Below are positions 15,116 through 35,793 of a DNA stretch of 56,184 bases, piece by piece. Position 1 is the stretch's first letter, and every line of letters begins with the position of its first letter. The notes under the pieces were generated by a model. The model was not told where the DNA came from. It saw only the letters and a program-made list of their open reading frames with translations, and searched no databases. The stretch is from a virus (taxonomy: Duplodnaviria; Caudoviricetes): the IMG/VR virus record IMGVR_UViG_3300042566_000389, positions 1 to 56,184 of that record; one strand, written 5' to 3'. The position numbers were made by a program, and so were the translations under genes.

Positions 15116-17212
15116 ATGAGTTATCTCAACAACAAACCTGAAGTCGAAGTCGATGTCTCAGAGAATGGGGCATTGGAGGACAACTCCAGCTTCGAGACCA
15201 ACCTTGCCTCTTATGTGCGCAAGTGCTGGGAGCAAGCGAAGGTAGCGCGTGCTGAGATCACTGAGCGTCTGCTCAAGTGTGAGCGCCAGCGCCGCGGGGT
15301 CTATGACCCTGACAAGGCTTCAGAGATTGCCAGGATGGGCGGCTCCGACATCTACATGATGCTCACGGACGTGAAGTGCCGTGCGGCTGAATCGTGGATC
15401 CGGGACGTAATGTTTGGCCAGCAGGATCGGGTATTTGACCTGACGCCATCCAACAGCCCACAGATGCCGCCAGAGATGCAACAAGCGATTGTTGACCTGG
15501 TGCGCACAGAAGCGGAGCAGTACGTCAACCAGGACGGCGGTGAGCTGCATCCTGAGACGTTCCGTGCTCGCATGGAAGAAGTGCATGAAATGATCATGCA
15601 ACGCCTGAAGACTGAAGCGGAAGATGCCGCTCGTCGTATGGGCGACAAGATTGAAGATCAGCTGGTCGAGGGCAAGTTTGAGCCATCGCTCAAGACGTTC
15701 ATCACGGACTTCGTGACGTTCCCTACCGCCATCATGAAAGGCCCAACGGTCAAGCGCCGCAAGGTCATGAAGTGGGGGCCGAACTTCCAGCCGATCGTGA
15801 GTACAGAGTTCTTACGGGAGTGTGAGCGGGTATCGCCTTACGATGCCTATCCCTCTCCGTCGTCAACAGGTGTGGATGATGGGTATTTCATTCATCGTCA
15901 TCGCCTGTCACGTGCCTCGCTTGACGCATTGCGTGGCACACCTGGTGTGGACGAGGACGCACTTCAGACGGTGATAGAGCGTCACGGCAAGAGCGGCTAT
16001 CGGTCGTTTCAAGCTGGTGACACTGAGCGCCGTCACCTCGAAGGTAAACCGTTCCGCACCCCGATCAACGAGGATCAGATTGAGACCTTGGAGTTCTGGG
16101 GTTCGGTGAATGGCCAGTGGTTGCTCGAGTGGGGCCTGGATGATCCAACGATCCGTCCTGACCGCGAGTACGAGGTCAACCTCTGGTGGACAGCCAATTT
16201 GGTTTGGAAGTGCATTCTGAATCCAGACCCGCTTGGCCATCGTCCCTACGACATCAGCAGCTGGGAAGAAGTTCCACACAGCTTCTGGGGTATCGCCCTG
16301 CCTGAGATCATGCGTGATACACAAGTGATGTGTAACGCAGCCGCTCGCAGCTTGGCGAACAACATGGGTATCGCCTCCGGCCCTCAGGTTGAGGTCACGG
16401 TCGATCGCTTGCCTGATGGTGAGGATCTGTCGGACATCTACCCCTGGAAGATCTGGCAGGTGACATCCGACCGTACTGGTGGTGGTCAGCCAGCCGTCAG
16501 GTTCTTCCAGCCGAACATGAACGCAGATGTGTTGATGTCGGTGTTCCAGAACTTTGCACGCCAGGCCGATGAAGTTACGGGCATTCCGAACTATGTGTAC
16601 GGTTCGAGCAACGTCAGTGGAGCGGGGCGTACTGCTAGTGGACTTTCGATGCTGATGGATAACGCATCAAAAGGTATTAAACAAGCAGTAGCAAACATTG
16701 ATAAAATAGTTTCTGGCATTGTGCAGAGACTATATCTGCATAACATGATGTACGACTCAGATCCGTACATCAAAGGCGACTACAAGGTGGTTGCCAAAGG
16801 CGCGATCGGCCTCATCCACAAAGAGGCACTGCAGATCCGCCGTAACGAGTTCCTGGTTGCTACCGCGAATCCTGTCGATCTACAGATCGTCGGGCAAGAA
16901 GGCCGCGCCTACCTCCTGCGTGAGGCTGCTCGTGGCTTACAGATGGATACGAGCAAGCTGGTTCCAAATCCAAGCGAGATGGAAGAGCAGCGTATCCAGC
17001 AGATGGCGCAAGGTCTGGCACAACAGATGGTTGAGCAGCTCATGCAGCAGCAACAGCAGCAAGCTCTGCCACCCGCGGCTCCAGCTGAACCTCCTCCAGG
17101 CCCTCCGCCCGGCCCAGCCCCAATGGCAATGGCTGACGGTGGTGAGGTTGACGTAGCTCCAGAAGTACTCGATCGATATTTAGCGTCTGTCGTAATGCGC
17201 GACGCAATGTAA
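15116..17212 (+). CDS. Portal protein
   Basis: 698 aa after terL; podoviral portal motifs (FWGIALPE, RTASGLSMLM); Q/P-rich tail. Confidence 0.9.
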   Translation: MSYLNNKPEVEVDVSENGALEDNSSFETNLASYVRKCWEQAKVARAEITERLLKCERQRRGVYDPDKASEIARMGGSDIYMMLTDVKCRAAESWIRDVMFGQQDRVFDLTPSNSPQMPPEMQQAIVDLVRTEAEQYVNQDGGELHPETFRARMEEVHEMIMQRLKTEAEDAARRMGDKIEDQLVEGKFEPSLKTFITDFVTFPTAIMKGPTVKRRKVMKWGPNFQPIVSTEFLRECERVSPYDAYPSPSSTGVDDGYFIHRHRLSRASLDALRGTPGVDEDALQTVIERHGKSGYRSFQAGDTERRHLEGKPFRTPINEDQIETLEFWGSVNGQWLLEWGLDDPTIRPDREYEVNLWWTANLVWKCILNPDPLGHRPYDISSWEEVPHSFWGIALPEIMRDTQVMCNAAARSLANNMGIASGPQVEVTVDRLPDGEDLSDIYPWKIWQVTSDRTGGGQPAVRFFQPNMNADVLMSVFQNFARQADEVTGIPNYVYGSSNVSGAGRTASGLSMLMDNASKGIKQAVANIDKIVSGIVQRLYLHNMMYDSDPYIKGDYKVVAKGAIGLIHKEALQIRRNEFLVATANPVDLQIVGQEGRAYLLREAARGLQMDTSKLVPNPSEMEEQRIQQMAQGLAQQMVEQLMQQQQQQALPPAAPAEPPPGPPPGPAPMAMADGGEVDVAPEVLDRYLASVVMRDAM

Positions 17213-17221
17213 GGAGCCAAG

Positions 17222-17494
17222 ATGGCCAAGCTATTCCAGGGTAAAGACGACAAGGCAGAAGAGATGGCGGAAGCCAAAGCCTTGAAGAACGGCAAGATCA
17301 CCAAGGGCGATTACGTCAAGGGTGAGACTTCTGAAGGTCATAGCAAGGGCGCTGCGAAGAAGGCCGACATGATCAAGAAAGGCAAGATGACTCCAGCCCA
17401 GTACGCCGCAGGCGAGGGCAAGGAACGCAAGATGGCTGATGGCGGCATGGTCTGCACAGGCTATCGCTCGGCTCAAGACTACGGGAAGAAATAA
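17222..17494 (+). CDS. Small basic virion-associated protein with MADGG motif
   Basis: AAGGAG RBS; K-rich internal repeat; KMADGGMV. Confidence 0.7.
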   Translation: MAKLFQGKDDKAEEMAEAKALKNGKITKGDYVKGETSEGHSKGAAKKADMIKKGKMTPAQYAAGEGKERKMADGGMVCTGYRSAQDYGKK

Positions 17495-18268
17495 ATGGGA
17501 TACGTACCAGAGTGGTCTCGTGGCTCTATGGCCAAGTCAGCAGGCAGCAAAGCCCAATCGGGAATTGTTAGCAAGCCGCTGTTTCATGGCGCACAAGCTG
17601 TGAAGTTGGCTGATGGCGGTGACGTAGCTGAGGCTATGCCGGTTGATCTGCCTGGTTACGAGGGCGACAAGCTTGGTGACTTCATCAATGAAAAGATGAG
17701 TGGCAAGCCAGACGCGAATGAGACTGAAGCCAAGTCCGATGTTTACAAGGGCAACTTCAACCAGGCGTTTGCATCTGCTCGAGCTGACGGTCACAAAGAG
17801 TTCACCTGGAACGGCAAGCGCTACGGCACTCAGATGGCTTCGGAAGTGAAGAAGCCTGAGAAAGCGCCGGAGAGTGAATCTAAGTACACGCCTCCCGAGG
17901 TTCCTGCTGATCCTCAGACCGACAACCACATGGGTTATGCCCATCGTCGCTTGACCGGTCGGAACGGTTTGGAAGGTGAGCGTGAGCTGAAGAACGGTGG
18001 CCCATCAAGTATTGCTGCCAGACAGCTCAAGGATCGCTTGGAAGATGCCAATGCAGCTCGCAAGCCAGGCTCGATCAACTTCAGCCAACTGCGTGAGAAA
18101 AATGGCGACTATCGCTATGAGCGCATGAAAGCGAACGAAGAGGCCAACAACCGCGGCCCGATGCACGATGAAGCTGAAGGTAAAGATACCGGCAGCACAC
18201 CCAAGCCACAGCCCCGCGGCAAGCAAGCCACGAAGGACAAGATGGCCAATTACCTGAAGAACAAATAG
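17495..18268 (+). CDS. Hydrophilic putative internal head protein with LADGG motif
   Basis: KLADGGDV; FNQAFASARADGHKEFTWNGKRYGT motif. Confidence 0.7.
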   Translation: MGYVPEWSRGSMAKSAGSKAQSGIVSKPLFHGAQAVKLADGGDVAEAMPVDLPGYEGDKLGDFINEKMSGKPDANETEAKSDVYKGNFNQAFASARADGHKEFTWNGKRYGTQMASEVKKPEKAPESESKYTPPEVPADPQTDNHMGYAHRRLTGRNGLEGERELKNGGPSSIAARQLKDRLEDANAARKPGSINFSQLREKNGDYRYERMKANEEANNRGPMHDEAEGKDTGSTPKPQPRGKQATKDKMANYLKNK

Positions 18269-18498
18269 TGCTCAAGAATCCATCCAAGAGAGTCATCCAG
18301 GCGCTAGCCGCCCTTGAGTCTGATCCAGACTTTAAAGAGGTGCTGGCATGGCTGGAGGAGTCTCGAAACACATTCATGCTTGACGGCTTCTATACCAAAG
18401 ACGAGGTTCAATCTCGCTGGTTCCAGGGAGCAGGTCAGGCAGTAACCGAGTTTCTCGATAAGGCGCAGTTAGCCCGAGAGACTCTACGCAAGTTCTGA
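18268..18498 (+). CDS. Small head-module protein (Bbp19-like position)
   Basis: Between portal and scaffold; PDFKEVLAWL..RWFQG. Confidence 0.6.
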   Translation: MLKNPSKRVIQALAALESDPDFKEVLAWLEESRNTFMLDGFYTKDEVQSRWFQGAGQAVTEFLDKAQLARETLRKF

Positions 18499-18604
18499 TT
18501 CGAAAGAGTCAACCCTAGCTGGCCGGGTATGGTCAGCAACTAATGAAGACTACCGAATGGGAGTCGCGTAATTACCGCGAGGCTTACGCACAACCTGGTG
18601 GCTC

Positions 18605-19561
18605 ATGGAGAGAAATGTGGCAATTCCACGCAAAGTGCAAGAAGCGGCAGACAGAGCCGAGGCCCTCCACAAACAGGTTTATGAGACCCAAGTAGCTGGA
18701 GACCCGCAGAACGCCCAAGTAGTGAACCCTGATCCGACTCCCGTCGTTGATCCTTCCCCGCAGCCCAATGATCCGGGCGTAGCAAATTCGACTGACACTC
18801 CACCCGCAGGTGAGCAGCCAGACCAGCCGAAGAAGGATGACCAATGGGAACATCGGTACAAGGTGATCGAAGGGAAATACCGCGCTGAGGTGCCTCGTCT
18901 AAACGCGGACAACCGCGAGCTTCGTCAGCAACTCGACGCACTCAAGAATGAACTCGAGCAGTTGAAGAGTCGGGGTACCGAACAGGCCACGTCACTCATC
19001 AGCACAGAGGATCGCGAGAAGTATGGCGATGATCTGCTCGACGTTATCAAACGCGCAGCGCAAGAACAGGTTGCGTCCAAGGACAGCGAGATCGCTGAGC
19101 TGAAGCGTCAATTGGAGACGGTCACTACGACCACCGCCAAGAGCGCCGATGTCAGCTTCTACGACCAATTGGGCAACATGGTTCCAGACTGGGTAACGAT
19201 TAACGCCGACGATCAATTCCTCAAGTGGCTGGATGAATACGACGAATTCACTGGACGTACTCGTCAAGACCTCCTCTCGGATGCAGAGCAATCGCGTGAC
19301 GCTAATCGCGTTGCGAAGTTCTTCACCAGCTGGAAGGCCAGTCAGTCAACCCACGCAACCAATACCCAGCGTGCACTTGAGTCCCAAGTAGCGCCCGACT
19401 CCAACCGAGTTGTGTCGCCACCTACGGGCAAGAGGATGTTCTCTCGAGGCGAGATTGCAGCGTTCTACGCAGCAGCCCGTCGCGGTGAAGTCAGCGCAAA
19501 GGAGATGGTCGCGATGGAAGCAGAAATCCACTCCGCAACTCTTGATGGGCGCATTCGTTAG
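18605..19561 (+). CDS. Capsid scaffolding protein
   Basis: Acidic P-rich N-terminus, coiled coil, directly before the major capsid gene. Confidence 0.8.
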   Translation: MERNVAIPRKVQEAADRAEALHKQVYETQVAGDPQNAQVVNPDPTPVVDPSPQPNDPGVANSTDTPPAGEQPDQPKKDDQWEHRYKVIEGKYRAEVPRLNADNRELRQQLDALKNELEQLKSRGTEQATSLISTEDREKYGDDLLDVIKRAAQEQVASKDSEIAELKRQLETVTTTTAKSADVSFYDQLGNMVPDWVTINADDQFLKWLDEYDEFTGRTRQDLLSDAEQSRDANRVAKFFTSWKASQSTHATNTQRALESQVAPDSNRVVSPPTGKRMFSRGEIAAFYAAARRGEVSAKEMVAMEAEIHSATLDGRIR

Positions 19562-19570
19562 CCCCAGAGT

Positions 19571-19585
19571 ATCAGCGGTACTGAT
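19571..19585. promoter_or_regulatory. Operator-like palindrome upstream of the capsid gene
   Basis: ATCAGC-GGT-ACTGAT matches the ATYAGC-N3-GCTRAT family. Confidence 0.45.
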
Positions 19586-19608
19586 ATTCAATTCAAAGGA
19601 AATATAAA

Positions 19609-20592
19609 ATGGCAGTTGATGTCTCTAGCGGTTATCCGCAATACAGCGCTTCGAATGGTTCGGGCGCGAAATTCATCCCCGAGATTTGGTCGGGCAAGCT
19701 CCAGGTCAAGTTCTACAAATCGACCGTTTTGGCCGAGATCACGAACAACGACTGGGAAGGTGAGATCAAGGGTTCGGGCGACAAGGTTCATATCCGTTCG
19801 ATCCCCACCATCACGATCCGTGATTACACCAAGGGTCTGAACCTCACCAATGAGGTGCCAGAAAGCACCCCGATCGAACTGACGATCGACAAGGGCAAGT
19901 ACTTCTCCGTCGTCGTTGACGATGTGGATGAAGTGCAGGCTGACGTTCGCCTGATGGACATGTTCACCAACGACGCATCTGAGCAGATGAAGATTGCGAT
20001 CGACGGCAACGTGCTCCAGACCGTGTACGCCGATGCAGCTGCTGCCAACAAAGGCACGACTGCTGGCGCGATCTCCGGCAACATCAACCTCGGTACTGCA
20101 AACAGCGCCTTGGCTCTGACCAAAGATGGCGCTTCGAGCACCAAGGCTGTCCTGGATCTGATCCTCGACATGGGCCAGGTTCTCGATGAGCAGAACGTCC
20201 CTGAAGACGGTCGCTGGTTGGTCATCTCTCCTTGGGCTGCAGCTCTGCTCAAGAAGTCTGACCTGCGCCAGGCTTACCTGACCGGTGATGACCAGTCGCC
20301 TCTGCGTAACGGCAAGATCGGCATGATCGATCGTTTCACGATCTACACGTCGAACAACCTCCTGAAGGTTGCCGATAACGCTGGCACGACTGGTAGCACA
20401 GCCGATGACTTCAACGGCTTCTACTTCATGGCTGGTACCCGTGATGCGATCTCGTTCGCTTCGCAAATCACCAACGTTGAAACCCTGCGTGCTCAAAGCA
20501 CCTTCGGCAACATCGTTCGTGGTCTGAACGTGTATGGCTACAAAGTGGTTAAACCAGAAGCCCTCGTGACGGCATACGTCAAGAAAGGCTGA
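19609..20592 (+). CDS. Major capsid protein
   Basis: FIPEIWSGKL, GDKVHI, TIDKGKYF, VRGLNVYGYKVVKPEAL; strong codon bias; terminator downstream. Confidence 0.92.
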   Translation: MAVDVSSGYPQYSASNGSGAKFIPEIWSGKLQVKFYKSTVLAEITNNDWEGEIKGSGDKVHIRSIPTITIRDYTKGLNLTNEVPESTPIELTIDKGKYFSVVVDDVDEVQADVRLMDMFTNDASEQMKIAIDGNVLQTVYADAAAANKGTTAGAISGNINLGTANSALALTKDGASSTKAVLDLILDMGQVLDEQNVPEDGRWLVISPWAAALLKKSDLRQAYLTGDDQSPLRNGKIGMIDRFTIYTSNNLLKVADNAGTTGSTADDFNGFYFMAGTRDAISFASQITNVETLRAQSTFGNIVRGLNVYGYKVVKPEALVTAYVKKG

Positions 20593-20600
20593 TGAATGAG

Positions 20601-20628
20601 GGGAGGGGGTTAACGCCCCCTCTCTGTT
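20601..20628 (+). terminator. Hairpin/terminator after the capsid gene
   Basis: GGGAGGGGGT-TAAC-GCCCCCTCTC-TGTT. Confidence 0.6.
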
Positions 20629-20635
20629 CGAGAAT

Positions 20636-20845
20636 ATGAAACTACTGAAACAGAAAAGCTCCGGTGAAATCTACGTGTGGACTGAGTTGCTCGCAAAGCG
20701 CGACGACATGGAACCGTATGAGCGCCCCGTCGTAGCACCAGCAGTACCCGAAGTTGTTGCTTCTCCTGAGCCGGTTCAAGCCGAGCCAGCTGACGAGAGC
20801 ATCAAACAGATGGCACAAGCCGTTCTGAAAAGACGCAAGAAATAA
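20636..20845 (+). CDS. Hypothetical protein
   Basis: 69-aa ORF in the structural operon. Confidence 0.65.
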   Translation: MKLLKQKSSGEIYVWTELLAKRDDMEPYERPVVAPAVPEVVASPEPVQAEPADESIKQMAQAVLKRRKK

Positions 20846-20857
20846 CAGGGATCTTCT

Positions 20858-21169
20858 ATGAAAGCTTCCGCAGTCAAACGCGAGGGCAGCAAGCTCGTCT
20901 ACCGCGGACATGAATTTGATGGCTTCAACAAGCCAAAGACTGCGCCTGACGGTGACACCCACAAGAAGATGGTGCTCGCTAAGAAGGGCGATGAAGTCAA
21001 GCTAGTCAAGTACGGACTGCGTGGCATGGAAGACTACACGCAGCACAAAGACCCCAAGCGCCGGGAGAACTATCTCAAGCGCTCAGCGGGAATCAAAGAT
21101 AAGAACGGCAAGCCAACCAAGGATGACCCGTTCAGCCCAAATCACTGGGCACGCAAAGACCTCTGGTAG
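20858..21169 (+). CDS. Basic DUF5754-like protein
   Basis: VKYG..GMEDYTQHKDPKRRENYLKR..SPNHWAR..LW. Confidence 0.55.
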   Translation: MKASAVKREGSKLVYRGHEFDGFNKPKTAPDGDTHKKMVLAKKGDEVKLVKYGLRGMEDYTQHKDPKRRENYLKRSAGIKDKNGKPTKDDPFSPNHWARKDLW

Positions 21170-21173
21170 ATAG

Positions 21174-22144: not shown

Positions 22145-22158
22145 CTACGAGGTAATAA

Positions 22159-24386: not shown

Positions 24387-24389
24387 CGG

Positions 24390-25442
24390 ATGGCATCGAA
24401 AGTAAAACTTAATGCGGCATCTGGCGGCTCAGTCACGATCCAGCCAGTTGATACAGCAGGCAACTACACAACCAAGATTCCTGCTGCAGGTGGCGTGGCT
24501 GTGATTGCTGATTCTGCAACTGGGGCAATGCAGCTTCCGGTTGGCACGACGGCGCAGCGCCCTGCTAGTCCGCAGGTTGGCTGGACAAGATTTAATAGCA
24601 CGCTCGGATATGCCGAGATTTACAACGGCACGACATGGACTGGGTTCTTTGGATACTCAGCTGCGTTCCTTGTGGTCGCTGGCGGTGGTGGCGGGTACTC
24701 AGCAGGCGGTGGTGCTGGCGGCATGCTGGCTTCTACCATCAAGTTAACGCCAGGAACTGCCTACACAATTACCGTAGGTGCTGGTGGTGCAGCCACGACT
24801 GGAAGCGCTCCTTACAACGGATCAATCGGCGGAACTTCATCGATAGGTTCTGTTGTGGTTGCTACCGGCGGCGGTGGCGGTAGTGGCTATTACGGCTCTC
24901 AAACCGGTGGCAACGGAGGTTCTGGTGGTGGTGGATACAGCGGTAGCGGATCTGCTGGAACAGGAATTTCTGGACAAGGTTTCCGAGGCGGTTATTTCGA
25001 TGGCTCCCAACAGTATGGCTACCCAGCTGGCGGCGGTGCTGGCGGAGTAGGCGGCAACAACAGCGGCCCATATGGAGCTGGTGCTGGTGGTCGCGGCTTG
25101 TACTGCGGGATCACAGGAGCTATTGCTTATTACGCAGGCGGCGGTGGTGGTGGCGCTGATACCAATTACGGAAATGGCGGTGCAGGCGGAGAGGGTGGCG
25201 GCGGCGGCTCAAACCAAGCAAACCAAAACGGAGTCGCAAATACAGGCGGCGGCGGAGGTGGTGGCTGGTATGGCGCAACAGCAAGAAATGCAGGCGCTGG
25301 CGGCTCCGGCGTTGTCATCATTGCTTATCAAAGCTTGATCCAACTTGGCTCTGGTGGAACTGTCACTTCATACACCGAAGCAAACACCGGCCTCAAATAT
25401 TGGGTTCATACCTTTACTACATCCGGTACATACACAGCATAA
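24390..25442 (+). CDS. Glycine-rich tail fibre/adhesin 1
   Basis: QRPASP module + LVVAGGGGG polyglycine domain + HTFTTSGT end. Confidence 0.8.
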   Translation: MASKVKLNAASGGSVTIQPVDTAGNYTTKIPAAGGVAVIADSATGAMQLPVGTTAQRPASPQVGWTRFNSTLGYAEIYNGTTWTGFFGYSAAFLVVAGGGGGYSAGGGAGGMLASTIKLTPGTAYTITVGAGGAATTGSAPYNGSIGGTSSIGSVVVATGGGGGSGYYGSQTGGNGGSGGGGYSGSGSAGTGISGQGFRGGYFDGSQQYGYPAGGGAGGVGGNNSGPYGAGAGGRGLYCGITGAIAYYAGGGGGGADTNYGNGGAGGEGGGGGSNQANQNGVANTGGGGGGGWYGATARNAGAGGSGVVIIAYQSLIQLGSGGTVTSYTEANTGLKYWVHTFTTSGTYTA

Positions 25443-25451
25443 GGAAACAAC

Positions 25452-25808
25452 ATGGCACATTTCGCAAAAGTAGTTGACGGTACGGTTGTCAACGTCATCG
25501 TGGCTGAACCGGAGTTCTTCGACACGTTCGTTGATAACTCGCCCGGTCAATGGATTCAAACTTCATACAACACCCACGGTGGTGTTCACTCTAACGGCGG
25601 GACTCCGCTGCGCAAAAACTACGCTGGAATCGGCTTTACGTATGACGCTCAGCGTGATGCGTTCATTCCGCCCAAGCCATTTGCAAGCTGGTCGTTGAAT
25701 GAAACAACCTGCTTGTGGGATGCGCCAACACCAATGCCAACTGATGGCAAGCGGTATCAGTGGGACGAAGCAACTATGAGCTGGCAAGAAGTCGTAGTTG
25801 CACAATAA
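25452..25808 (+). CDS. Fibre-associated (chaperone-like) protein
   Basis: MAHFAKV..WIQTSYN..LRKNYAGIG..DAFIPPKPF.SW, commonly next to Gly-rich fibre genes. Confidence 0.7.
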   Translation: MAHFAKVVDGTVVNVIVAEPEFFDTFVDNSPGQWIQTSYNTHGGVHSNGGTPLRKNYAGIGFTYDAQRDAFIPPKPFASWSLNETTCLWDAPTPMPTDGKRYQWDEATMSWQEVVVAQ

Positions 25809-25817
25809 GGAAGAATC

Positions 25818-26774
25818 ATGCCGTTAGACATTCAGGGCACGGATTATCTAAAGCTGCCAGTCGGGACTGATTCTCAGCGCCCAGCCTCTCCGTCTTTCGG
25901 AATGGTTCGAGGCAGTAGTACCAGCGGGAACCTGGAGTGGTATGACCCCTCCACAAGTTCATGGAAGCCTATCTATCAAATGCCTGGTTACTCGGTTGAG
26001 TACCTGGTTGTTGCTGGTGGTGGATCCGGTGGATCAACAAACTATGCGTGGAATTCAGCTGGTGGTGGCGGTGCTGGCGGCGTACTGACAGGCACATCAA
26101 ACCTAACGACTGGAGTCGCATATACGGTTGTTGTTGGAGCTGGCGGCGCAGCTGTCTATGGCAATAGCACCGGCGTCAATGGCATCAACGGGAATAACTC
26201 GTCTTTCAATACTGTTACCGCACTTGGTGGCGGTGCTGGCGGCGCAGGAGGCACATCTCCAGGTTTTGCTGGCGGTAGCGGCGGCGGTGCTGGACGTAAC
26301 GCATACGGCGGCGCAGGCACTACAGGCCAAGGCTACAAAGGCGGTGACTCGCTGCACACCGATCCATATTCGGGTGGCGCTGGCGGTGGCGGTGCTGGTG
26401 CTGCTGGCGGCGCAGGCCCAAGCGCTGGTGTTGGCGGCATTGGAGTTACCAGCTCGATTACTGGAGTGAGCACGTATTACGGTGGTGGCGGCAGTGGTGC
26501 GATGTATTACGGCACACCAGCATCTGGCGGTGGTGGACGAGGAGGTGGTTCCGGTGTGTTGGCAACTGCTGGCACGGCGAATACCGGAGGTGGTGGTGGA
26601 GGATATTACTGGGCTGATGGTGGCGGCGGAACACAAGGTTACTCAGGCGCTGGCGGCTCTGGAGTCGTTGTATTGCGCTATCTCGGCACTCAGCGTGGTG
26701 TAGGCGGAGCGGTCACTTCTTCTGGCGGTTACACAATTCACACCTTTACGTCCTCTGGGACTTACATTGCATGA
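25818..26774 (+). CDS. Glycine-rich tail fibre/adhesin 2
   Basis: Same architecture as 24390. Confidence 0.8.
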   Translation: MPLDIQGTDYLKLPVGTDSQRPASPSFGMVRGSSTSGNLEWYDPSTSSWKPIYQMPGYSVEYLVVAGGGSGGSTNYAWNSAGGGGAGGVLTGTSNLTTGVAYTVVVGAGGAAVYGNSTGVNGINGNNSSFNTVTALGGGAGGAGGTSPGFAGGSGGGAGRNAYGGAGTTGQGYKGGDSLHTDPYSGGAGGGGAGAAGGAGPSAGVGGIGVTSSITGVSTYYGGGGSGAMYYGTPASGGGGRGGGSGVLATAGTANTGGGGGGYYWADGGGGTQGYSGAGGSGVVVLRYLGTQRGVGGAVTSSGGYTIHTFTSSGTYIA

Positions 26775-26784
26775 GGACAAATAG

Positions 26785-27738
26785 ATGTCAACAGTTATTA
26801 GTGGCTCGACAGGCGTATATCCACAGCAGTGGACTACCGCTACGCGCCCGGCCAGTCCCTATGCAGGGCAAAGCGGTTTCAACTCAACCACAGGACAGCA
26901 TGAGTGGTATGACGGTACAGCATCAAGCTGGAAGCCGTTCTCTCAACCAGCAGGCTACCTGGTCAACTACCTTGTTGTAGCTGGAGGTGGGGGCGCTGGT
27001 AGTGGAGGCGGCGGTGCCGGTGGTGTTTTAGCAGGGTCTATATCGCTGTCATCTGGTAATGCGTACACGATTGCTATCGGCGCTGGCGGTGCTGGAACCG
27101 TATACAACAGCGGCGCTGCCCCGGCCTATTCTGGAGGCAACTCGTCCATAAGCGCGGTTGCTACTGCACTTGGCGGTGGTGGCGGCGGATGGGTTAACGG
27201 CAGTCTTGCGCTGAGTGGCGGGTCTGGCGGCGGTGCTGGCGCTGCTTCGTCAGGTGTTTACTCCGGTGGTACGGGAACAACTGGGCAGGGTTACGCCGGT
27301 GGATCGAACGGTACTAATGCTTCTCCTTATCCGGCTGGCGGGGGCGGCGGCGCAGGTGCTGTTGGCGGTACAGGCAGCGGCAGTGTTAGCGGAAGTGGAG
27401 GAGCAGGCGTATCAAGCAGCATCAGCGGTGCTGCTACATATTATGGTGGCGGTGGTGGCGGTGGCTCTACAAACTCAGGTGCAACTGCCGGGGCTGGTGG
27501 CGTAGGTGGCGGCGGCGCTGGTGGTGTGACCACCACAGGATCTAATGGATCTGCAAACTCCGGTGGCGGTGCTGGCGGTGGTCGTGACAACCCAGGCGTA
27601 TTTGGTGGCAATGGCGGGTCTGGAGTGGTAATTCTTAGTTACCTTGGATCACAGCGCGGAACTGGCGGTACGGTCACTTCGTCCGGTGGCTACACAATCC
27701 ATACGTTCACATCCTCCGGGACGTATTACTCATGGTAA
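26785..27738 (+). CDS. Glycine-rich tail fibre/adhesin 3
   Basis: Same architecture; TRPASP..YLVVAGGGG..YTIHTFTSSGTY. Confidence 0.8.
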   Translation: MSTVISGSTGVYPQQWTTATRPASPYAGQSGFNSTTGQHEWYDGTASSWKPFSQPAGYLVNYLVVAGGGGAGSGGGGAGGVLAGSISLSSGNAYTIAIGAGGAGTVYNSGAAPAYSGGNSSISAVATALGGGGGGWVNGSLALSGGSGGGAGAASSGVYSGGTGTTGQGYAGGSNGTNASPYPAGGGGGAGAVGGTGSGSVSGSGGAGVSSSISGAATYYGGGGGGGSTNSGATAGAGGVGGGGAGGVTTTGSNGSANSGGGAGGGRDNPGVFGGNGGSGVVILSYLGSQRGTGGTVTSSGGYTIHTFTSSGTYYSW

Positions 27739-29155: not shown

Positions 29156-29427
29156 ATACCCCGGCCATTGTGTTGGTCGAGTGGTTAGATGCGGAACATG
29201 AGTTCGGCTGGATGGACGGCAACGAACTCGAAGATCAAGAACCGGTTCTCAACTGCTTCACGGTTGGCTGGCTATTGAAAAAGACAAAGACACACATCCG
29301 AGTGTGCCAAACGTTCTCACACAACAACCATGCCCAGACCTTGGTGATACCAAAGGGAATGATTGTGTCGATGACGGTTCTTCAACCTCCGATCTCAAGG
29401 TGTCCCAGTGGCCACAAAAATAAGTGA
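29131..29427 (+). CDS. Conserved hypothetical protein
   Basis: GTG start; VLVEWLDA..GW..TVGWL..IPKGMI. Confidence 0.6.
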   Translation: MDADSPKVNTPAIVLVEWLDAEHEFGWMDGNELEDQEPVLNCFTVGWLLKKTKTHIRVCQTFSHNNHAQTLVIPKGMIVSMTVLQPPISRCPSGHKNK

Positions 29428-30346
29428 TGAAGTGTTTATCAGTACATGGCAACGATTGCAGAACGCAACACTTGTTTCCAAAGAGCTAGACCTGGATCTG
29501 CGGTCAGTGCATCGCAGACGTAAGAGCCTCGAGGGCAGATACACGCTGCCGTTGAAATCAGCAGACCCACGATCACCAACATTCGTCCGACGAGAACACT
29601 CTCCGCGGATCGACTGCGAGATGCAGAACGGAGTGATCGTAGTTGGATCGGACGCGCATTATTGGCCTGGTGTTATCAGCACCGCTCATAAAGCATTTGT
29701 AGCAACGATTAAAGAATTAAAGCCTCAACTTGTAGTTGTCAACGGAGACCTCTTTGATGGGGCACGAGTAAGCCGCTGGCCGCGATCCGACTGGTCGCAA
29801 AGCCCTACGGTTAAAGACGAGCTACAGGCCGTTTCAGATCGCTTGTTTGAAATCAAGCAAGCAGCCGGAAGCGCAAAGATTTGGTGGTGCCTCGGCAATC
29901 ACGACATGCGCTTCGAAACCAAGCTGGCCAATATGGTTCCAGAGTTCGAAGGCGTGAAAGGCTTTGCGCTGCAAGATCATTTTCCAGAAGTGCCAATGAC
30001 CATCAGCTTGATGATCAACGGCAACCTGATGATCAAGCATCGCTATCACAACGGTGTGCATGCCACGTTCAACAACGCTTTAAAGAGCGGCGTGAATATG
30101 GTCACAGGTCACCTGCACCGTCTCCAGGCTACGGTCTTCAGCGACTACAACGGATCTCGTTGGGGTGTTGACTGCGGAACCTTGGCGGACACGGAAGGTG
30201 ATCACATGCACTACGGCGAAGACAACCCGATGAATCATTGCTCTGGGTTTGCCGTTCTCACCATCCACGATGGGCAGTTGTTGCATCCAGAGTTCTGCTC
30301 TGTGCACAACGAGAAAGCATTCTTTAGAGGTAAACAAGTGGTGTAA
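29408..30346 (+). CDS. Calcineurin-like metallophosphoesterase with N-terminal HTH-like region
   Basis: SDAH, NGDLFD, GNHD, GHLH motifs. Confidence 0.85.
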   Translation: MATKISDEVFISTWQRLQNATLVSKELDLDLRSVHRRRKSLEGRYTLPLKSADPRSPTFVRREHSPRIDCEMQNGVIVVGSDAHYWPGVISTAHKAFVATIKELKPQLVVVNGDLFDGARVSRWPRSDWSQSPTVKDELQAVSDRLFEIKQAAGSAKIWWCLGNHDMRFETKLANMVPEFEGVKGFALQDHFPEVPMTISLMINGNLMIKHRYHNGVHATFNNALKSGVNMVTGHLHRLQATVFSDYNGSRWGVDCGTLADTEGDHMHYGEDNPMNHCSGFAVLTIHDGQLLHPEFCSVHNEKAFFRGKQVV

Positions 30347-31978
30347 ATGACAGTTCTCAAAGCAACAGCCTTCAGCGGCTTAAATCCACGTACAGACCCA
30401 CGTTTGCTACCGGACAACGCAGCCGTTAAGGCTGTTAATGGGAAGCTGCAGACGGGCACACTTAAGCCATACAAGGCTCCAGGCACGATCGCATCGCTGT
30501 CGAAGCCTGGGACTATCAAGACAATCTATCGCTTCGGGGAAGAGGTCGTCGGTGATGCCAACTACTGGTTTCACTGGACGACCGATGTCAACGTTGTCAA
30601 AGGCCCGTTGTCCGACGATGCGTTTGAGCGCACGTACTACACGGGTGACGGCGTTCCCAAGATGACCACCAACGCAATTGCATTAACCGGTGGCACAAAC
30701 TACCCGATGAACTATTACAACCTCGGGTTGCCTTCTCCTTCCTCAGCTATCACCGCCTCAGTCACTGGCTCGCCTACCGAAGCATCGGCCTTGGCAGAAA
30801 CTCGCGTCTACACCTACACGTTCGTCTCTGAACTGGGTGAAGAAAGCGCTCCCGCTGAAGCATCCAATGCGGCTGACGTAAAGGTTGGCCAATCGGTTGT
30901 GTTGACAGGCATGAGCACGGCTCCTGTAGGCGCATACAACGTAACGACCAAGCGAATCTACCGTTCCGTCCAAGGATCTGGTGGAGCTGGTTATCTGTTC
31001 GTTGCCGAGATCCCTGCTGCAAACACCTCCTATACGGACAGCGTGTTGGCTGCAAACCTGGGTGAATCTCTTGTGTCTCTGTCCTGGGATACGCCGCCGG
31101 AAGACATGGCTGGCTTGTGCATCATGGCAAACGGCATCATGGCTGGCTTCTCCGGTAAGGACATCTGCTTCTCAGAACCTTTTGTTCCGCACGCCTGGCC
31201 GACCGGATACCGCCTGCAGTCCGACCACAACATCGTTGGCATCAGCGCGTTCGGTACGTCCCTATTTGTTGGCACAGACGCATTCCCATACATCATCACT
31301 GGTATCGACCCAAGCGGCATGACGATGACGAAAAGCCCGTCGCGCCAAGCTTGTGTATCCAAGCGTTCGATCGTTGATATGGGCGGTGGCGTGTTCTACG
31401 CATCACCCGATGGCATCTGCCTGGCTGACGGTAACGGGGTGCAGGTACTGACCACGCAGCTGATGACTCAGGATGAATGGCAGGCATACAACCCATCTTC
31501 GATCCATGCCACCCAGCTCGATGGGCGTTACTTCGCCTTCTACGACACGGGCACAGTGCAGGGATGTCTCGTCCTGGATCCGACAGGAGATGGCGCTCAG
31601 CTATGGGAGAGCGATGTCTATTACACCGCGGCGTACAACAACGTCAAAGCGGATGCGATGTACCTGGCTACGACCGGCAGCGTCAAGAAGTGGGACGCAG
31701 GATCAACCAACCTGACTTATCAGTGGAAGTCGAAGACCTTTGTGTTGGCCAAGCCAGAGAACATCGGTGTCGGCCAGGTGTTCGCCAATGCTTATCCGGT
31801 GACGATGAAGGTCTATGCGGATGGCATGCTCAAGACAACCAAGACGGTTGCAAATGAATACCCGTTCAAGTTGCCATCAGGCTTCAAGGCTCGCGAGTGG
31901 GCATTCGAGCTGGTTGGTTCAAATGAGGTCACGTCTGCTCAGCTGGCATCCACAACGATGGAGTTGACCCAGGCATGA
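30347..31978 (+). CDS. Tail nozzle/stabilisation protein (P22 gp10/T7 gp12 analog)
   Basis: FSGLNPR.DPRLLP, FSEPFVPHAWP, YASPDG, WKSK; beta-rich. Confidence 0.75.
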   Translation: MTVLKATAFSGLNPRTDPRLLPDNAAVKAVNGKLQTGTLKPYKAPGTIASLSKPGTIKTIYRFGEEVVGDANYWFHWTTDVNVVKGPLSDDAFERTYYTGDGVPKMTTNAIALTGGTNYPMNYYNLGLPSPSSAITASVTGSPTEASALAETRVYTYTFVSELGEESAPAEASNAADVKVGQSVVLTGMSTAPVGAYNVTTKRIYRSVQGSGGAGYLFVAEIPAANTSYTDSVLAANLGESLVSLSWDTPPEDMAGLCIMANGIMAGFSGKDICFSEPFVPHAWPTGYRLQSDHNIVGISAFGTSLFVGTDAFPYIITGIDPSGMTMTKSPSRQACVSKRSIVDMGGGVFYASPDGICLADGNGVQVLTTQLMTQDEWQAYNPSSIHATQLDGRYFAFYDTGTVQGCLVLDPTGDGAQLWESDVYYTAAYNNVKADAMYLATTGSVKKWDAGSTNLTYQWKSKTFVLAKPENIGVGQVFANAYPVTMKVYADGMLKTTKTVANEYPFKLPSGFKAREWAFELVGSNEVTSAQLASTTMELTQA

Positions 31979-33528
31979 GCGAGATCGTTCTCACGGGCGA
32001 TGGCCCAAAGATCCCCCAGATTCCAACCGTCCCGATTTCTGATCAGAACGTGCGCACGGCTGTTGAAGGCATCAGGAATATCTTCAATACCAGAGCGTTC
32101 GGCAAGAACGAGGTTGACCGCTGGGTGACTTGGCGTGATCTGGTGAAGAGCAACATCGTTGTCTACCGAGATGGCGACACCACGTTCACCGGTAATCAGG
32201 GCGGCAACTTCTTTCCTATTGGAGAGGATCCGGCCGATTTCACGCCACCACCCGCTCCGGTCAACCTGACGGCTGTATCAGCGGCTTTGACGGTGATCCT
32301 GGAATGGGATGACCCTCAGTACGCCAACCTCGCCTACGCAGAGATCTGGCGCTCCACAACCAATGACCTTGGCGCAGCAGTCAGGATTGGCACAACGGTC
32401 TCGTTTCTGTACGCAGATGCAGTTGGCGCTGGCAGCATCACCTATTACTACTGGGTGCGCCTGGTTTCCAAGAAGGACATCGTTGGGGCATACAACTCCT
32501 TGATTGGGACGATGGCAGCAACCGGTCTGATTGGCAACGTTGATCTTGGGCCTTTGATTGTTGAAGCCGCGAACCTTGCAGTCGATGCGGTTGAAGAAGG
32601 CAAGATCAAAGACTTCGCAGTCACAACAACCAAGATTGCAAACCTGGCTGTCGGTAACGCTGCGATTGCCAATGGCGCTATCACCAACGCAAAGATCGAG
32701 AACCTGGCGGTTGACTCAGCCAAGATTGCCGACGCTGCGATTGTTGCCGCCAAGATTGCTGATGCGACGATCACGACGGCCAAGATCGGGGATGCCCAGA
32801 TCACGGGTGCAAAGATCGCCAACGCCACGATTGGTACGGCGAACATCACCGACGGTGCAATTACAAACGCCCTGATTGGTGACGCGCAGATCTCAACAGC
32901 CAAGATTCAGACGGCTGCGATTACCAACGCCAAGATTCTGGATGCCACGATTACCGGGGCAAAGATCGCTAGCGCGACGATCGGTACAGCCTTGATTGCT
33001 GACGCTGCCATCGTTTCTGCGTTGATTGCGGATGCTGCGATTGTTGAGGCGAAGATTGCTTCAGCCGCTATCAGCTCGGCCAAGATTCAAGATGCTGCCA
33101 TCACGAACGCAAAGATCGGATCAGCCGCTATTACCAGCGCCAAGATCGGTGACCTCGAGGTGGGCACGATCAAGATTGCTGGCAACGCGGTGTCATTCGG
33201 TGGTGCTGTGGTGGGTAGTGGCGCAGCCGGGTTCTATACGGCAGTCGGTGGGACGCTGGCGGTCACGGCATACGCAGGTGGCACGTCAAACGGCGGCAAC
33301 CTGTTCTACATCATCGTAGACGGCACGACGATTGACACGTTCCCAGCTGGTGCTCCGGTGTGGAGAAACAGTGGCGGCGATGCTGGCGCTTTGTATATCG
33401 AGGCGTATGGCGCGATGTCGGGCGTGTCGTCTATCTATCTTGGCCCAGGTAGTCATTCTGTTGGCTTCTACTTGGCAGACCAGGCATACAGCCCCGCCAG
33501 GATTATTTGGAACTTCTTCCAGCGATGA
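31975..33528 (+). CDS. Tail tip/fibre protein with FN3-like domain and AKI.DA.IT repeats
   Basis: TPPPAP..EIWRS..YYWVR then many decapeptide repeats. Confidence 0.75.
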   Translation: MSEIVLTGDGPKIPQIPTVPISDQNVRTAVEGIRNIFNTRAFGKNEVDRWVTWRDLVKSNIVVYRDGDTTFTGNQGGNFFPIGEDPADFTPPPAPVNLTAVSAALTVILEWDDPQYANLAYAEIWRSTTNDLGAAVRIGTTVSFLYADAVGAGSITYYYWVRLVSKKDIVGAYNSLIGTMAATGLIGNVDLGPLIVEAANLAVDAVEEGKIKDFAVTTTKIANLAVGNAAIANGAITNAKIENLAVDSAKIADAAIVAAKIADATITTAKIGDAQITGAKIANATIGTANITDGAITNALIGDAQISTAKIQTAAITNAKILDATITGAKIASATIGTALIADAAIVSALIADAAIVEAKIASAAISSAKIQDAAITNAKIGSAAITSAKIGDLEVGTIKIAGNAVSFGGAVVGSGAAGFYTAVGGTLAVTAYAGGTSNGGNLFYIIVDGTTIDTFPAGAPVWRNSGGDAGALYIEAYGAMSGVSSIYLGPGSHSVGFYLADQAYSPARIIWNFFQR

Positions 33529-33890
33529 ACGAATACATTTCCTTTTACGACTCGACAGGCAAGATTATCGGGATGGCGTCATCCCAGGCAGAGGTGATGC
33601 CGATGATCAAAGAGAACACCACCGATCCGTATGTGGACGGTGAATGGTTTGGTCACCCTGTTTACGTACTGGACGGGCAAGTAACTCCCAGACCCGCAAA
33701 CCCATCTGTCTTGACAGGGACAACGCTGACCAACGTGCCAGTGCCAGCCACGATCAAGATCAACGACGCAACATACGAATCAAACGAATCCAGAGTTGAA
33801 CTCGGATTTAGTCAGCCCGGTACATACAGGGTTACGGTGATTGCCTGGCCGAACCTGGACAAGGAGTTCCAAATTGAAAATCCAGCATAG
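33525..33890 (+). CDS. Tail-associated protein
   Basis: Coupled; FYDSTGKI..PGTYRV..WP. Confidence 0.65.
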   Translation: MNEYISFYDSTGKIIGMASSQAEVMPMIKENTTDPYVDGEWFGHPVYVLDGQVTPRPANPSVLTGTTLTNVPVPATIKINDATYESNESRVELGFSQPGTYRVTVIAWPNLDKEFQIENPA

Positions 33891-34056
33891 CGAGGACTAC
33901 CGAAAGCTCAGAGCTGCGGAGTACCCAAAGATTGGAGACCAGCTGGACGCGATCTACAAGCTGGCTCAGTGGATGAAGAACAGCCAGTCGATGCCAGTCG
34001 AGACGTTGGAGTGGCTGGATCAAGTAGCAGCAGTTAAGTCGAAGTACCCAAAGTAG
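33874..34056 (+). CDS. Small tail assembly protein
   Basis: AAGGAG + TTG; YRKLRAAEYP.IGDQLDA..VKSKYPK. Confidence 0.65.
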   Translation: MKIQHSEDYRKLRAAEYPKIGDQLDAIYKLAQWMKNSQSMPVETLEWLDQVAAVKSKYPK

Positions 34057-34114
34057 CAACGTTTGCCGACAGTTATCGCTATTAAAATAGCAAAACAGCA
34101 ACACTAATCACTAT

Positions 34115-34522
34115 ATGTCTACCCGTTTGATTATCGATGACGATCGCGTCTACAAATTCCTGCGAGAGCAGGGTGTGGACTTGGCTCGTGCAGCGGATCA
34201 ACAGGGCATCGGACTGGAGCGTGATGGTGAGCTGGTCGGCGGTGTGTTGTACGAAGGTTTCAACGGCCCGAACATCTGGATGCACTGTGCCGGAGTGGGC
34301 AATTGGATAACGAAGTCACTGCTCAAAGCAGCCTTCGCCTATCCGTTCGTTCAGCTTGGTGTCAGCAATGTCTGGGGCTGGGTTGACGCATCCAATGCCA
34401 AGGCTCGTCGGTTAAACGAACACCTGGGATTTACACAACAGACAGTGATTCCGGGTGCTGCCAAAGATGGCGACGTAATCATTTACCGCATGACACGCGA
34501 GGGATGTCGATTCCTCCGATAA
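34115..34522 (+). CDS. GNAT acetyltransferase-like virion morphogenesis protein
   Basis: FAYPFVQLG..N.KARRLNEHLGF; precedes the ejection genes like P22 gp14/T7 gp13. Confidence 0.75.
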   Translation: MSTRLIIDDDRVYKFLREQGVDLARAADQQGIGLERDGELVGGVLYEGFNGPNIWMHCAGVGNWITKSLLKAAFAYPFVQLGVSNVWGWVDASNAKARRLNEHLGFTQQTVIPGAAKDGDVIIYRMTREGCRFLR

Positions 34523-34533
34523 GGATCTAAAGA

Positions 34534-35793
34534 ATGTTTGATGAAATGAACCGCTTCGGCAAGCACGCCGATTTCATGGCCTTCTACGGCGATGAGTGCG
34601 ATGACCCCAGAGACCCAGTAGCACGCCGTATTGCTGTTCGCAAGAAAGGCAACGTGTGTTTTGGCGGTAAAGGCGGAGACGCACCTGATCCCAACCCCGG
34701 CATGCTTGCATCAGCTGACGCTGCACGCGAGATCGCTCAGGTTCAGAAGCAAACGGCTGACGAAACGCTGAACTTCTACAAGCAGCAGTACGCCGAGATG
34801 AAGCCGATGATTCAGGAAGTCATGCAGAATGACATGAACATCGCCAAGGCGAACGCTGCCCGTGCGGATGAATACGCTCAGTACGAACGTGAGACGTTCC
34901 GCCCACTCGAGAAGAACCTGGTCAAAGACGCAGAGGAATACTCGACTGAAGGCAAGCGTGAAGCCCTGGCAACCAAGGCCGCGGCTGATGTCAACACAGG
35001 ATTTACAAACGCACGCGAACAAGAGGGACGAGCACTGTCTCGCATGGGTGTCAACCCGAACTCTGGTCGCTTCGCTGCGTTAAACAAACAACTCACTCTC
35101 GGTCAGGCTGCAACTTCAGCTGGCGCAATGACGAAGGCTCGCGATGACGCTGAGCAACTTGGCTTTGCACGTCGGATGGACGTAACGCAGCTTGGTCGTG
35201 GTTTGGCTGGTAACGCATCTACTGCCTACGGCGTATCGATGGGTGCTGGTGAGGCGGCTCGTAACAGCGCGATCGCTGGCGGCAACTTCATGGGTGGCGG
35301 CTACGGTGCAGCTCAGGCTGGATACAGCGGCGCAGCCAACTCATACGGTACGGCAGGCAACATCTATGGCCAGGAATTCCAAGGCCGTATGCAGGGCTAC
35401 CAAGCGCAACAGCAAGCATCTAGCTCAGCGATGTCTGGTATCGGATCCATGATCGGTACCGGTATCGGTGCGTATATGAGCGGCGGTTTGTCACTGGCAG
35501 CTGCAGCAGGGAAGAAAGCGGACGGCGGGATTATCAGAAAAGCGAATGGCGGCAAGGTAACGCGTCGTGCACTCAAGCTAGCTGATGGCACTCATGTTGG
35601 TGCAGGCCCAGTCGCTGGCCCAGGTGGCCCGGTCGATGACAAGGTACCTGCTCTGCTGTCAGATGGCGAATACGTCCTGCCAGCAGACACCGCAGCCAAG
35701 ATTGGCAAAGACAAACTCGACAAGCTGGTTGACAAGACGCATACACCAGCCGCTGTACAGCGCAAGCGCAAAGCACTCAAGGGGAAAAAATAA
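34534..35793 (+). CDS. DNA ejection (pilot) protein 1
   Basis: CF-GGKGG N-terminal motif, RMGVNPNSG, Gly/Ala membrane-like segment, C-terminal ADGG..GPG..DD.VPALLSDGEYV. Confidence 0.75.
   Translation: MFDEMNRFGKHADFMAFYGDECDDPRDPVARRIAVRKKGNVCFGGKGGDAPDPNPGMLASADAAREIAQVQKQTADETLNFYKQQYAEMKPMIQEVMQNDMNIAKANAARADEYAQYERETFRPLEKNLVKDAEEYSTEGKREALATKAAADVNTGFTNAREQEGRALSRMGVNPNSGRFAALNKQLTLGQAATSAGAMTKARDDAEQLGFARRMDVTQLGRGLAGNASTAYGVSMGAGEAARNSAIAGGNFMGGGYGAAQAGYSGAANSYGTAGNIYGQEFQGRMQGYQAQQQASSSAMSGIGSMIGTGIGAYMSGGLSLAAAAGKKADGGIIRKANGGKVTRRALKLADGTHVGAGPVAGPGGPVDDKVPALLSDGEYVLPADTAAKIGKDKLDKLVDKTHTPAAVQRKRKALKGKK

Follow-up and report, generated by a model that had tools for sequence, protein, structure and literature searches.

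Introduction

Cleavage of tape measure proteins has been known for decades in the bacteriophages lambda and T5, in which gpH is converted to gpH* and gpHC, and pb2 to pb2* and pb2C. Both precursors show the same order of elements, namely a hydrophobic stretch, a ΦAxGG motif (Φ = M, L, F, Y, K or R), a conserved acidic segment and a C-terminal part. Here we describe this motif, in the form ΦA[DN]GG, in four proteins of a temperate podophage whose 56,184-bp genome, an IMG/VR record rated 100% complete (IMGVR_UViG_3300042566_000389), is the whole of the window analysed here. The four proteins are the portal protein P0001, two small proteins (P0002 and P0003) encoded between the portal and the putative scaffold, and P0004, an internal or ejection-type virion protein in which the motif is followed by a conserved acidic core. 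P0004 differs from the tape measure proteins of T5 and lambda in coming from a podophage, where it does not serve as a tape measure; the motif is here also found on the portal and two small head-region proteins. The likeness of T5 pb2 to the module described below is at the level of the motif only.

Internal head proteins that are otherwise unrelated also share short terminal peptides in other phages, namely the capsid targeting sequences of T4-type phages, which are removed by the prohead protease, and likewise the capsid localisation signal of P1 DarB. The present motif differs from both in lying at either end of a protein or internally and in occurring in tail proteins that never enter the capsid. 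Its presence in tail proteins argues against an encapsulin-type shell-binding role in general. Unlike in T4-type targeting, no gene of a prohead-protease family was found in the window. Another likeness is provided by the Peptidase_S74 chaperone of tail spikes and fibres, whose C-terminal part is shed after oligomer assembly, as may happen at the junction proposed here. The module has no sequence relation to S74, and this domain is absent from P0004 of the window and inserted beside the tag and module in four of its orthologs.

Occurrence and Conservation of the Motif

All copies of the motif lie on the plus strand. The first one, M-ADGG (17129..17143, ADGG at 17132), is located in the C-terminal tail of the 698-residue SU10-type portal protein P0001 (15116..17212; PF23899 SU10_portal, E 6.5e-13; phrog_332, E 3.8e-58; phrog_1216), whose C terminus carries PMAMADGGEVDV; it is preceded by a Pro/Ala-rich linker and followed by a C-terminal segment of about 20 residues (17144-17209). 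The basic 90-residue protein P0002 (17222..17494) contains M-ADGG within KMADGGMV (17432-17446, ADGG at 17435), 17 residues from its C terminus, and the 257-residue protein P0003 (17495..18268) has L-ADGG within KLADGGDV (17606-17620, ADGG at 17609), after a conserved N-terminal part of about 38 residues. In the 419-residue P0004 (34534..35793; phrog_8003 'virion structural protein', E 9e-62), K-ADGG of KKADGGII (35515-35529, ADGG at 35518), K-ANGG of KANGGKV (35539-35553, ANGG at 35542) and a degenerate L-ADGT of KLADGTHV (35578-35592, ADGT at 35581) are followed by GPVAGPGGPVDDKVPALLSDGEYVLPAD. The residue before Ala is M, L or K in every copy.

A first-pass annotation of this DNA, made from the sequence alone, had regarded these peptides as a tag shared by four unrelated virion proteins. 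All the peptides it quoted were found, its coordinates corresponding to one codon before each Ala, and the sharing proved to be non-random: in a crude gene call of the window (74 open reading frames (ORFs), 17,425 residues) the pattern [MLFYIVK]A[DN]GG has five copies in four proteins, whereas 2000 shuffles of residues within proteins averaged 0.50 copies, never exceeded 4 and thus never reached five. Virion membership agrees with family matches for the portal and P0004; P0002 and P0003, in contrast, have no match in PHROG, Pfam or NCBIfam, and gene position is the basis on which they are taken as probable virion proteins. A search of the ESM Atlas with P0003 gave nothing beyond viral clusters without a name and tape measure rows of low score.

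The conservation in orthologs that the same annotation anticipated is evident, since the motif occupies the same sites in relatives. Seven IMG/VR contigs carry P0004 orthologs with 33-58% identity, and all seven keep ΦADGG or ΦANGG together with a core of the form G.GGP.DD.[IV]PA.LS[DN]GE[YF]V. Among five whole related records the ejection protein is tagged in every one, the portal tail in G002 and G004, a small ORF after the portal in G003 and G004, and a longer ORF downstream in G002, G004 and G005. A portal-based scan gave 80 loci, 57 of which were analysed after leaving out 20 with at most 28% identity and three with the portal cut at a contig end; two of the 57 had no portal ORF and one had a cut tail, leaving 54 scored tails. 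ΦADGG was present in 34 of 35 complete tails with at least 66% portal identity, and 31 of these 34 loci had at least one further tag in ORFs within 2.2 kb downstream. None of 19 tails with identity of 50% or less was tagged, and the downstream ORFs of those loci were also free of the motif. Rhizobium phage RHph_TM3_14A, the closest phage in the public records, has a portal with 37% identity and likewise no tag. Many portal loci are near-copies of each other, and for this reason 21 distinct tails were aligned; A, D, G and G are the sole invariant columns, at a mean column identity of 41%. The enrichment of the motif, its invariance amid variable portal flanks and its constant positions in relatives indicate that it is under selection.

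Positional counterparts of P0002 are ORFs of 53-126 residues with one to three tags, and those of P0003 are proteins of 209-351 residues with one or two tags at residues ~40-90. In the P0003-type proteins the conserved N-terminal ~40-55 residues end in the tag and the sequence beyond is poorly conserved, a layout that hints at a propeptide with its processing site. These proteins and an extra 126-residue protein of G004 (window 17495-17620; G002 from 4818; G004 from 39010 and from 43252) also have a common N-terminal M-G/S-x-x-P-[END]-W, then basic residues and the tag; the M-G/S-x-x-P-[END]-W segment may be a second, N-terminal shared signal.

The Junction Module and Its Distribution

Rather than standing as a tag in its own right, ΦA[DN]GG opens and closes a module of about 65 residues, ΦAxGG-x-[IV]-x-GPG-(4)-D-x-[IV]PA-x-L[ST]-x-GE[YF]V, which continues with a short helix and ends with ΦAxGG. 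Among 1.84 billion representative proteins, a profile built on the C terminus of P0004 (A1) matched 14,936 at E<=1e-3, of which 1,662 had E<=1e-10 and 25 had E<=1e-30, and it reached tape measure proteins at E down to 5e-59. The best matches have lengths of 2,000-8,000 residues, and the profile aligns with 3-8 stretches in each. Both giant matches scanned for domains are tape measure proteins with PhageMin_Tail, one of them also having M23 peptidase and HAD phosphatase, and two shorter matches have NlpC/P60 or CHAP plus LysM, flanked by the module. Judging by such matches, most module proteins appear to be tape measure proteins.

The consensus of 316 modules taken from the 150 best A1 matches is [FYKLR]-A-x-G-G-x-[IV]-x-G-P-G-(4)-D-x-[IV]-P-A-x-L-[ST]-x-G-E-[YF]-V-[VI]-x-A, followed by a helix ending in N. 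Counted from P-A, Ala is present at -17 in 68% of them and Gly at -15 in 76% and at -14 in 82%, with F, Y, K, L or R at -18; [AS]xGG stands exactly 17 residues before P-A in 209 of the 316 modules and appears again at +26..+50 in 234. The strict [DN] form is found within 60 residues upstream in 67 of 334 modules, in 30 of these at a distance of 18, and the x position varies among T, S, A, D and G in modules of tape measure proteins. Tags often stand in tandem with a period of 8-11 residues. The first-pass annotation had treated the GPG..LSDGEYV segment as a candidate reader of the tag; the common spacing of tag and core in modules means instead that 'tag' and 'reader' are two parts of one repeat unit.

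The same annotation stated that a similar segment recurs in siphophage tape measure proteins, and the profile matches bear this out. A second profile (A3) of 59 modules, for which 46 diverse IMG/VR loci were used together with the window and four relatives, matched the PDB sequences of Douge gp16 (1.5e-27, two copies), JBD30 gp46 (6.9e-10) and lambda gpH (0.0032); a weak PDB match to MTH1895 (E 0.76) disappeared with the larger profile. According to the structural reports, only residues 1658-1699 of Douge gp16 and the last 33 residues of JBD30 gp46 were built, which leaves the modules outside, and residues ~690-817 of lambda gpH, including its module, are not resolved. There is no entry for the module in Pfam (seven modules, E<=10) or NCBIfam (seven proteins). 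PF09718 Tape_meas_lam_C, to which one row of the ESM Atlas had pointed, is a different element, covering gpH 627-701 upstream of the module at 733-782 and matching none of seven modules at E<=10. Literature text searches for the motif and module strings, tape measure motif and cleavage gave no relevant paper.

AlphaFold2 modelling of the canonical module as a monomer (59 rows) gave a mean predicted local distance difference test (pLDDT) score of 66.6, with a helix only and no confident fold. Taken together with the model of P0004, only the hairpin and helix of the core were modelled, with moderate confidence, and the tags were disordered.

Two observations on individual module proteins may be added. 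Many of 1047 public-phage tblastn records share with lambda gpH only the core of about 40 residues at 745-785, with 75-91% identity among the matches listed, so that this core is more widely shared than its flanks. At one of the module-bearing loci (L121), a 716-residue protein encoded from 10303 onward (plus strand), directly 3' of a module-bearing 372-residue protein, has four ΦA[DN]GG at residues 152, 181, 209 and 237, i.e., with a spacing of 28-29 residues.

Architecture of P0004 and Its Orthologs

P0004 consists of a long helical hairpin, a Gly-rich hydrophobic stretch, the tags and the module. The uncharged stretch rich in Gly, Ala, Ile and Met (residues 299-326; 35428..35511, plus strand) lies directly 5' of the first tag and has conserved G304 and G308 in the family alignment. 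Among 25 family members A329, G331 and G332 of the first tag are invariant or nearly so. The module core (residues 356-410; 35599..35763, plus strand) reads G.G.V.GPGGPVDD.VPALLSDGEYV.PAD, then a helix, then HTPAAVQR, and its residues G358, G362, G364, G365, P366, D368, D369, P372, A373, L375, S376, E379, V381 and P383 are invariant in the same 25 proteins. The canonical G-P-G-(4)-D-x-[IV]-P-A-x-L-[ST]-x-G-E-[YF]-V with its helix is present at residues 362-402. The canonical tag position, 17-18 residues before P-A, is taken by a degenerate V-G-A-G-P, and the tags of P0004 stand 22, 35 and 43 residues before P-A; some orthologs retain xxGGxV.GPGG at the canonical spot.

The AlphaFold2 model of P0004 has helices at 55-298 and disordered tags (pLDDT 31-37). 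Foldseek comparison of this model with the PDB gave only generic coiled coils, none at E<=0.001, and phmmer found no match among PDB sequences at E<=10. A tblastn search of public phages with the C-terminal 100 residues, a short and low-complexity query, gave no match, and in the ESM Atlas the C terminus met with the same kinds of match as P0003.

Virion-associated proteins of Bcep22, BcepIL02 and GP4, which are phrog_8003 relatives, are about 30% identical to P0004 over the N-terminal ~200 residues and have the same gene neighbourhood, with GNAT directly upstream and a DarB-like giant protein downstream. Unlike P0004, these homologs stop at the hydrophobic stretch and have neither tags nor module. 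All four scanned P0004 orthologs with an extra insert of about 100 residues (P0071, P0072, P0079 and P0090) have a self-cleaving Peptidase_S74 chaperone domain, scoring 25.8-29.6 bits (cut-off 22), which separates the hydrophobic stretch from the tag and module; P0004 itself has no Peptidase_S74 (PF13884) and no Pfam match at E<=0.01. The S74 inserts suggest that proteins of this family oligomerise and that their C-terminal part can be shed. The P0004-like protein P0094 (648 residues) has two core segments, at least six xDGG tags and a tag-flanked DUF6496 (PF20106, E 1e-9).

Relation to Cleavage of Tape Measure Proteins

The order of a Gly-rich or hydrophobic stretch followed by ΦAxGG is common to P0004, lambda gpH, JBD30 gp46 and T5 pb2. 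T5 pb2 is stated in the main text of the respective paper (PMC10038345) to be cut 'after R1127'. The relaxed motif occurs twice in the 1219 residues of pb2, and one of its occurrences, after a hydrophobic stretch, is R1127-A-E-G-G, so that the cut falls between Φ and Ala; the chance of such a coincidence, counting the six positions of a motif, is roughly 2 x 6/1219, or ~0.01. In pb2 and five relatives chosen by tblastn and spread over the identity range, R, A, G and G are invariant down to 37% identity, x is E, A, N or S, and the position of the His in the proposed metallopeptidase motif varies among H, K and N. In the absence of detectable homology between the T5 region and the module, the support from T5 consists of the five-residue motif and its invariance.

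In lambda gpH a Gly-rich stretch leads into F733-ATGG, which is followed by the core and then by Y778-ATGG. A 2025 paper gives gpH* as ~78 kDa (about residues 1-710), regards the cleavage site and catalyst as unknown and models the end of gpH* between 691 and 730. The lambda module falls inside the region of this unmapped cut, and cleavage before A734 would yield fragments with computed masses of 79.8 and 12.5 kDa. In JBD30 gp46 a Gly/Ala-rich stretch is followed by F1019-ASGG and the core; the JBD30 paper takes the cut to be at residue 1066, an assumption made from the analogy to T5. The motif predicts cut sites at F733/A734 in lambda and at F1019/A1020, instead of 1066, in JBD30. Thus, the suggestion of the first-pass annotation that ADGG could be a cleavage signal gains from the T5 cut directly before AEGG and from the position of the lambda cut in the module region; for the present phage we infer such cleavage, its catalyst and the use of the same machinery by the lone tags.

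Co-Occurrence of Tags and Module, and Protease Candidates

Each genome of this clade has one module core, in the P0004 ortholog (a single copy in the window). In a comparison of relatives the module is present in five of five tag-positive and none of five tag-negative records, four of the latter being at least 94% complete; two of the five tag-negative genomes encode a short, distant homolog of the P0004 N-domain that lacks the module. The co-occurrence expected in the first-pass annotation was thus found, and it rests on about two lineages. In a quick portal tree (21 rows) the main tag-positive group forms a single clade with support of 98-99 in the Shimodaira-Hasegawa-like approximate likelihood ratio test, G005 with its lone tag and module is placed elsewhere (96), and the tag label requires at least two changes; phage mosaicism could confound the association.

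Outside this clade the picture is different. Within 10 kb on either side of 80 other module-bearing loci only 11 tags lie outside the module protein in 259,567 residues, which is about the chance rate, and at least five of them belong to module proteins missed by the pattern and four to the 716-residue neighbour mentioned above. Tagged portal and head proteins are therefore peculiar to the clade of the window, and the multi-protein tag system proposed in the first-pass annotation would be a peculiarity of this clade and not a property of the module in general. Its further idea that the module binds the tags did not find support: AlphaFold2 monomers leave the tags disordered, and a complex prediction for the P0004 module (A1 45-110) with the portal tail (A4 36-70) scored 0.01 against a mark of 0.32, in a run made without controls that speaks neither for nor against binding. 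The suggested link between tag and GPG..LSDGEYV is borne out by their union in one unit of tape measure proteins and by their co-occurrence.

Scans with PHROG and Pfam gave no prohead-protease family, and no protease family was recognised among 26 ORFs from 13.6 to 46 kb. The earlier statement that no prohead protease is recognisable holds in this respect; the window does have, however, an HslV-family peptidase-like gene (2662..3123, plus strand; 153 residues, starting M-T-V; phrog_1040 'peptidase HslV family', E 4e-29), a candidate protease only, which has no Pfam match. It is situated in the replication region, adjoining primase/helicase and HNH endonuclease genes, and occurs in three of five tag-positive and none of five tag-negative relatives. 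As an obligatory protease it was rejected, since two of the tag-positive genomes, with completeness ratings of 99% and 100%, lack the gene.

Proposed Mechanism and Alternatives

In our opinion, the motif is a maturation-cleavage junction with the acidic core as its cis determinant, copied in this clade onto the portal and head proteins; we give this reading a probability of roughly 45%. The module is carried by proteins that leave the virion ahead of the DNA, i.e., siphophage tape measure proteins and the podophage ejection protein P0004, typically just behind a Gly-rich hydrophobic stretch. The cut would be made between Φ and Ala of ΦAxGG, and the downstream acidic core with its invariant Asp and Glu would serve as a recognition element for a protease or, alternatively, as a self-processing element working only in the assembled oligomer. 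The clade of the window would have copied the junction onto the C-terminal tail of the portal and onto the two small proteins encoded between portal and scaffold, and a single processing or recognition event in the procapsid could trim or otherwise engage all four proteins. A detachable C-terminal part, to which the S74 inserts of four orthologs and the Bcep22-type homologs ending at the stretch both point, supports cleavage at the junction.

A number of facts weigh against this reading. Cleavage at the junction is known only for T5 and extended to this clade by inference, and the lambda site is bracketed only by gel masses (79.8/12.5 kDa against the quoted ~78/~14 kDa). No homology between the T5 region and the module could be detected: hidden Markov model scores were below 0 or about 2 bits, BLASTP of the T5 segment against gpH gave E 12, and the hhalign probability was 0.2%. 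The lack of a confident fold in the module monomer and the disorder of the P0004 tags are hard to reconcile with an autonomous autoprotease. Small proteins that consist almost wholly of two or three tags resemble multivalent ligands more than substrates; 71 of 225 strict tags in the best matches have no module nearby; and cuts at all 3-8 modules would fragment giant tape measure proteins, which is possible only after assembly.

The same multivalent appearance suits a docking motif, in which a ΦADGG hairpin would be the ligand of the GPG..LSDGEYV-helix element, binding in tape measure proteins within one chain or from chain to chain of the oligomer, with no cleavage needed. In this clade binding in trans would tether P0004 to the portal tails, the small multi-tag proteins acting as cross-linkers inside the procapsid. 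The union of tag and core in one unit, the single core per genome set against several tagged proteins, the co-occurrence of tag and module, and the failure of the monomer to fold alone, as expected if folding takes place on binding, would all be understood in this way. The exact coincidence of the mapped T5 cut with the motif would remain unexplained, and the tags of other proteins are not above chance at the 80 other module loci, so that we regard docking as possible but somewhat unlikely. It is improbable that the motif is only a passive structural element, a tight Asx-Gly-Gly turn or hinge for extended storage and threading without a specific partner or protease, spread over several proteins by duplication or recombination of a short cassette: the location of tags in low-complexity regions predicted to be disordered, the wide variation of x in tape measure proteins and the tandem arrangement fit it, but the portal is not ejected and yet keeps its tail ADGG invariant amid variable flanks, Ala and Gly-Gly are conserved far beyond the need of a generic hinge, and the motif coincides with the T5 cleavage site.

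Recognition by a dedicated, module-independent protease, with the module a mere neighbour, could be ascribed to the phage HslV-family peptidase, whose gene is found among tag-positive relatives only, or to a host enzyme. The absence of this gene from two tag-positive genomes, its place in the replication region and its lack of Pfam support speak against the former, and the latter would have to be common to the very different hosts of 14,936 module proteins; on balance such a protease seems quite improbable. Chance recurrence of a short word in tails rich in Ala, Gly and Asp is excluded for practical purposes, despite the shortness of the motif and the biased composition of its surroundings, because composition-preserving shuffles never reached the observed count and the motif keeps its position over dozens of contigs, with invariant columns. 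Three further ideas were discarded: RTX-like calcium repeats do not fit the pattern; Asn/Asp succinimide self-cleavage after [DN] disagrees with the T5 cut, which precedes Ala, and with an x that is not always D or N; and ubiquitin- or Pup-like Gly-Gly conjugation through the amidoligase at 6637-8103 was dropped without supporting evidence.

A stronger form of the cleavage-junction reading, which we find doubtful, is that the module is a self-contained processing cassette with ΦAxGG as the scissile element and an Asp/Glu core that becomes competent, or accessible to a protease, only in the assembled oligomer. If true, this would be a maturation system without a protease gene in many thousands of tailed phages. 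It would explain the conversion of lambda gpH to gpH* and the cuts in T5 pb2 and would free lysin domains from polyprotein-like giant tape measure proteins, and the P0004 module would act in trans in the procapsid on the tagged portal tails and small head proteins.

Genomic Surroundings

The presence of genes for an integrase (48150-49229), an Erf-like annealing protein (54062-54736) and a repressor-like regulator (54844-55500), all on the minus strand, indicates that the phage is temperate. Four related records (G005, G007, G008 and G010) are proviruses by classification. The structural genes, whose order was read from PHROG and Pfam annotation, are all on the plus strand. The large terminase (13683-15110) precedes the portal; P0003 is followed by a conserved ORF of 76 residues, a putative scaffold of 318 residues (phrog_13678) and a P22/T7-like major capsid protein (19609-20592), after which come adaptor and tail genes and then lysis genes. 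An internal-virion-protein gene (30347-31978; phrog_511) lies upstream of P0004. On the 3' side of P0004 there are a 363-residue ORF and a DarB-like/LPD38 giant polyvalent protein of 3065 residues (36888-46085) with a DarB-like/endolysin-like N-terminal region (residues 105-438) and LPD38 (2729-2922), which has neither tag nor module.

Inside the structural and ejection block there are also a calcineurin-like metallophosphoesterase (29408-30346) and, upstream of P0004, a GNAT acetyltransferase (34115-34522), both on the plus strand; the pairing of GNAT and virion protein genes is also kept in BcepIL02 and GP4. Three paralogous Gly_rich_2 (PF21722) proteins of ~320-350 residues with common N-terminal segments (24390-27738, plus strand) alternate with small ORFs, resembling a cassette of alternative tail-fibre tips. 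On the minus strand, an Amidoligase_2-type enzyme (6637-8103; PF12224, E 2e-6) adjoins a gene for a class-II glutamine-amidotransferase-like protein (5519-6607) with a weak match (E 0.0025, below the cut-off), and the two are possibly a small-molecule or peptide-ligation pair.

Conclusions

A module of about 15,000 representative proteins, without an entry in domain databases, has been defined, and its short, countable motif is linked to the cleavage of tape measure proteins. This leads to residue-level predictions for lambda, JBD30 and every ΦAxGG junction of giant tape measure proteins. The spread of the motif to the portal tail and small head proteins in one podophage clade suggests a further use of this recognition event in phages lacking a prohead protease, namely to organise or trim internal proteins of the head, and, if such reuse is real, the motif could become a portable tag for loading cargo into phage heads or releasing it from them.

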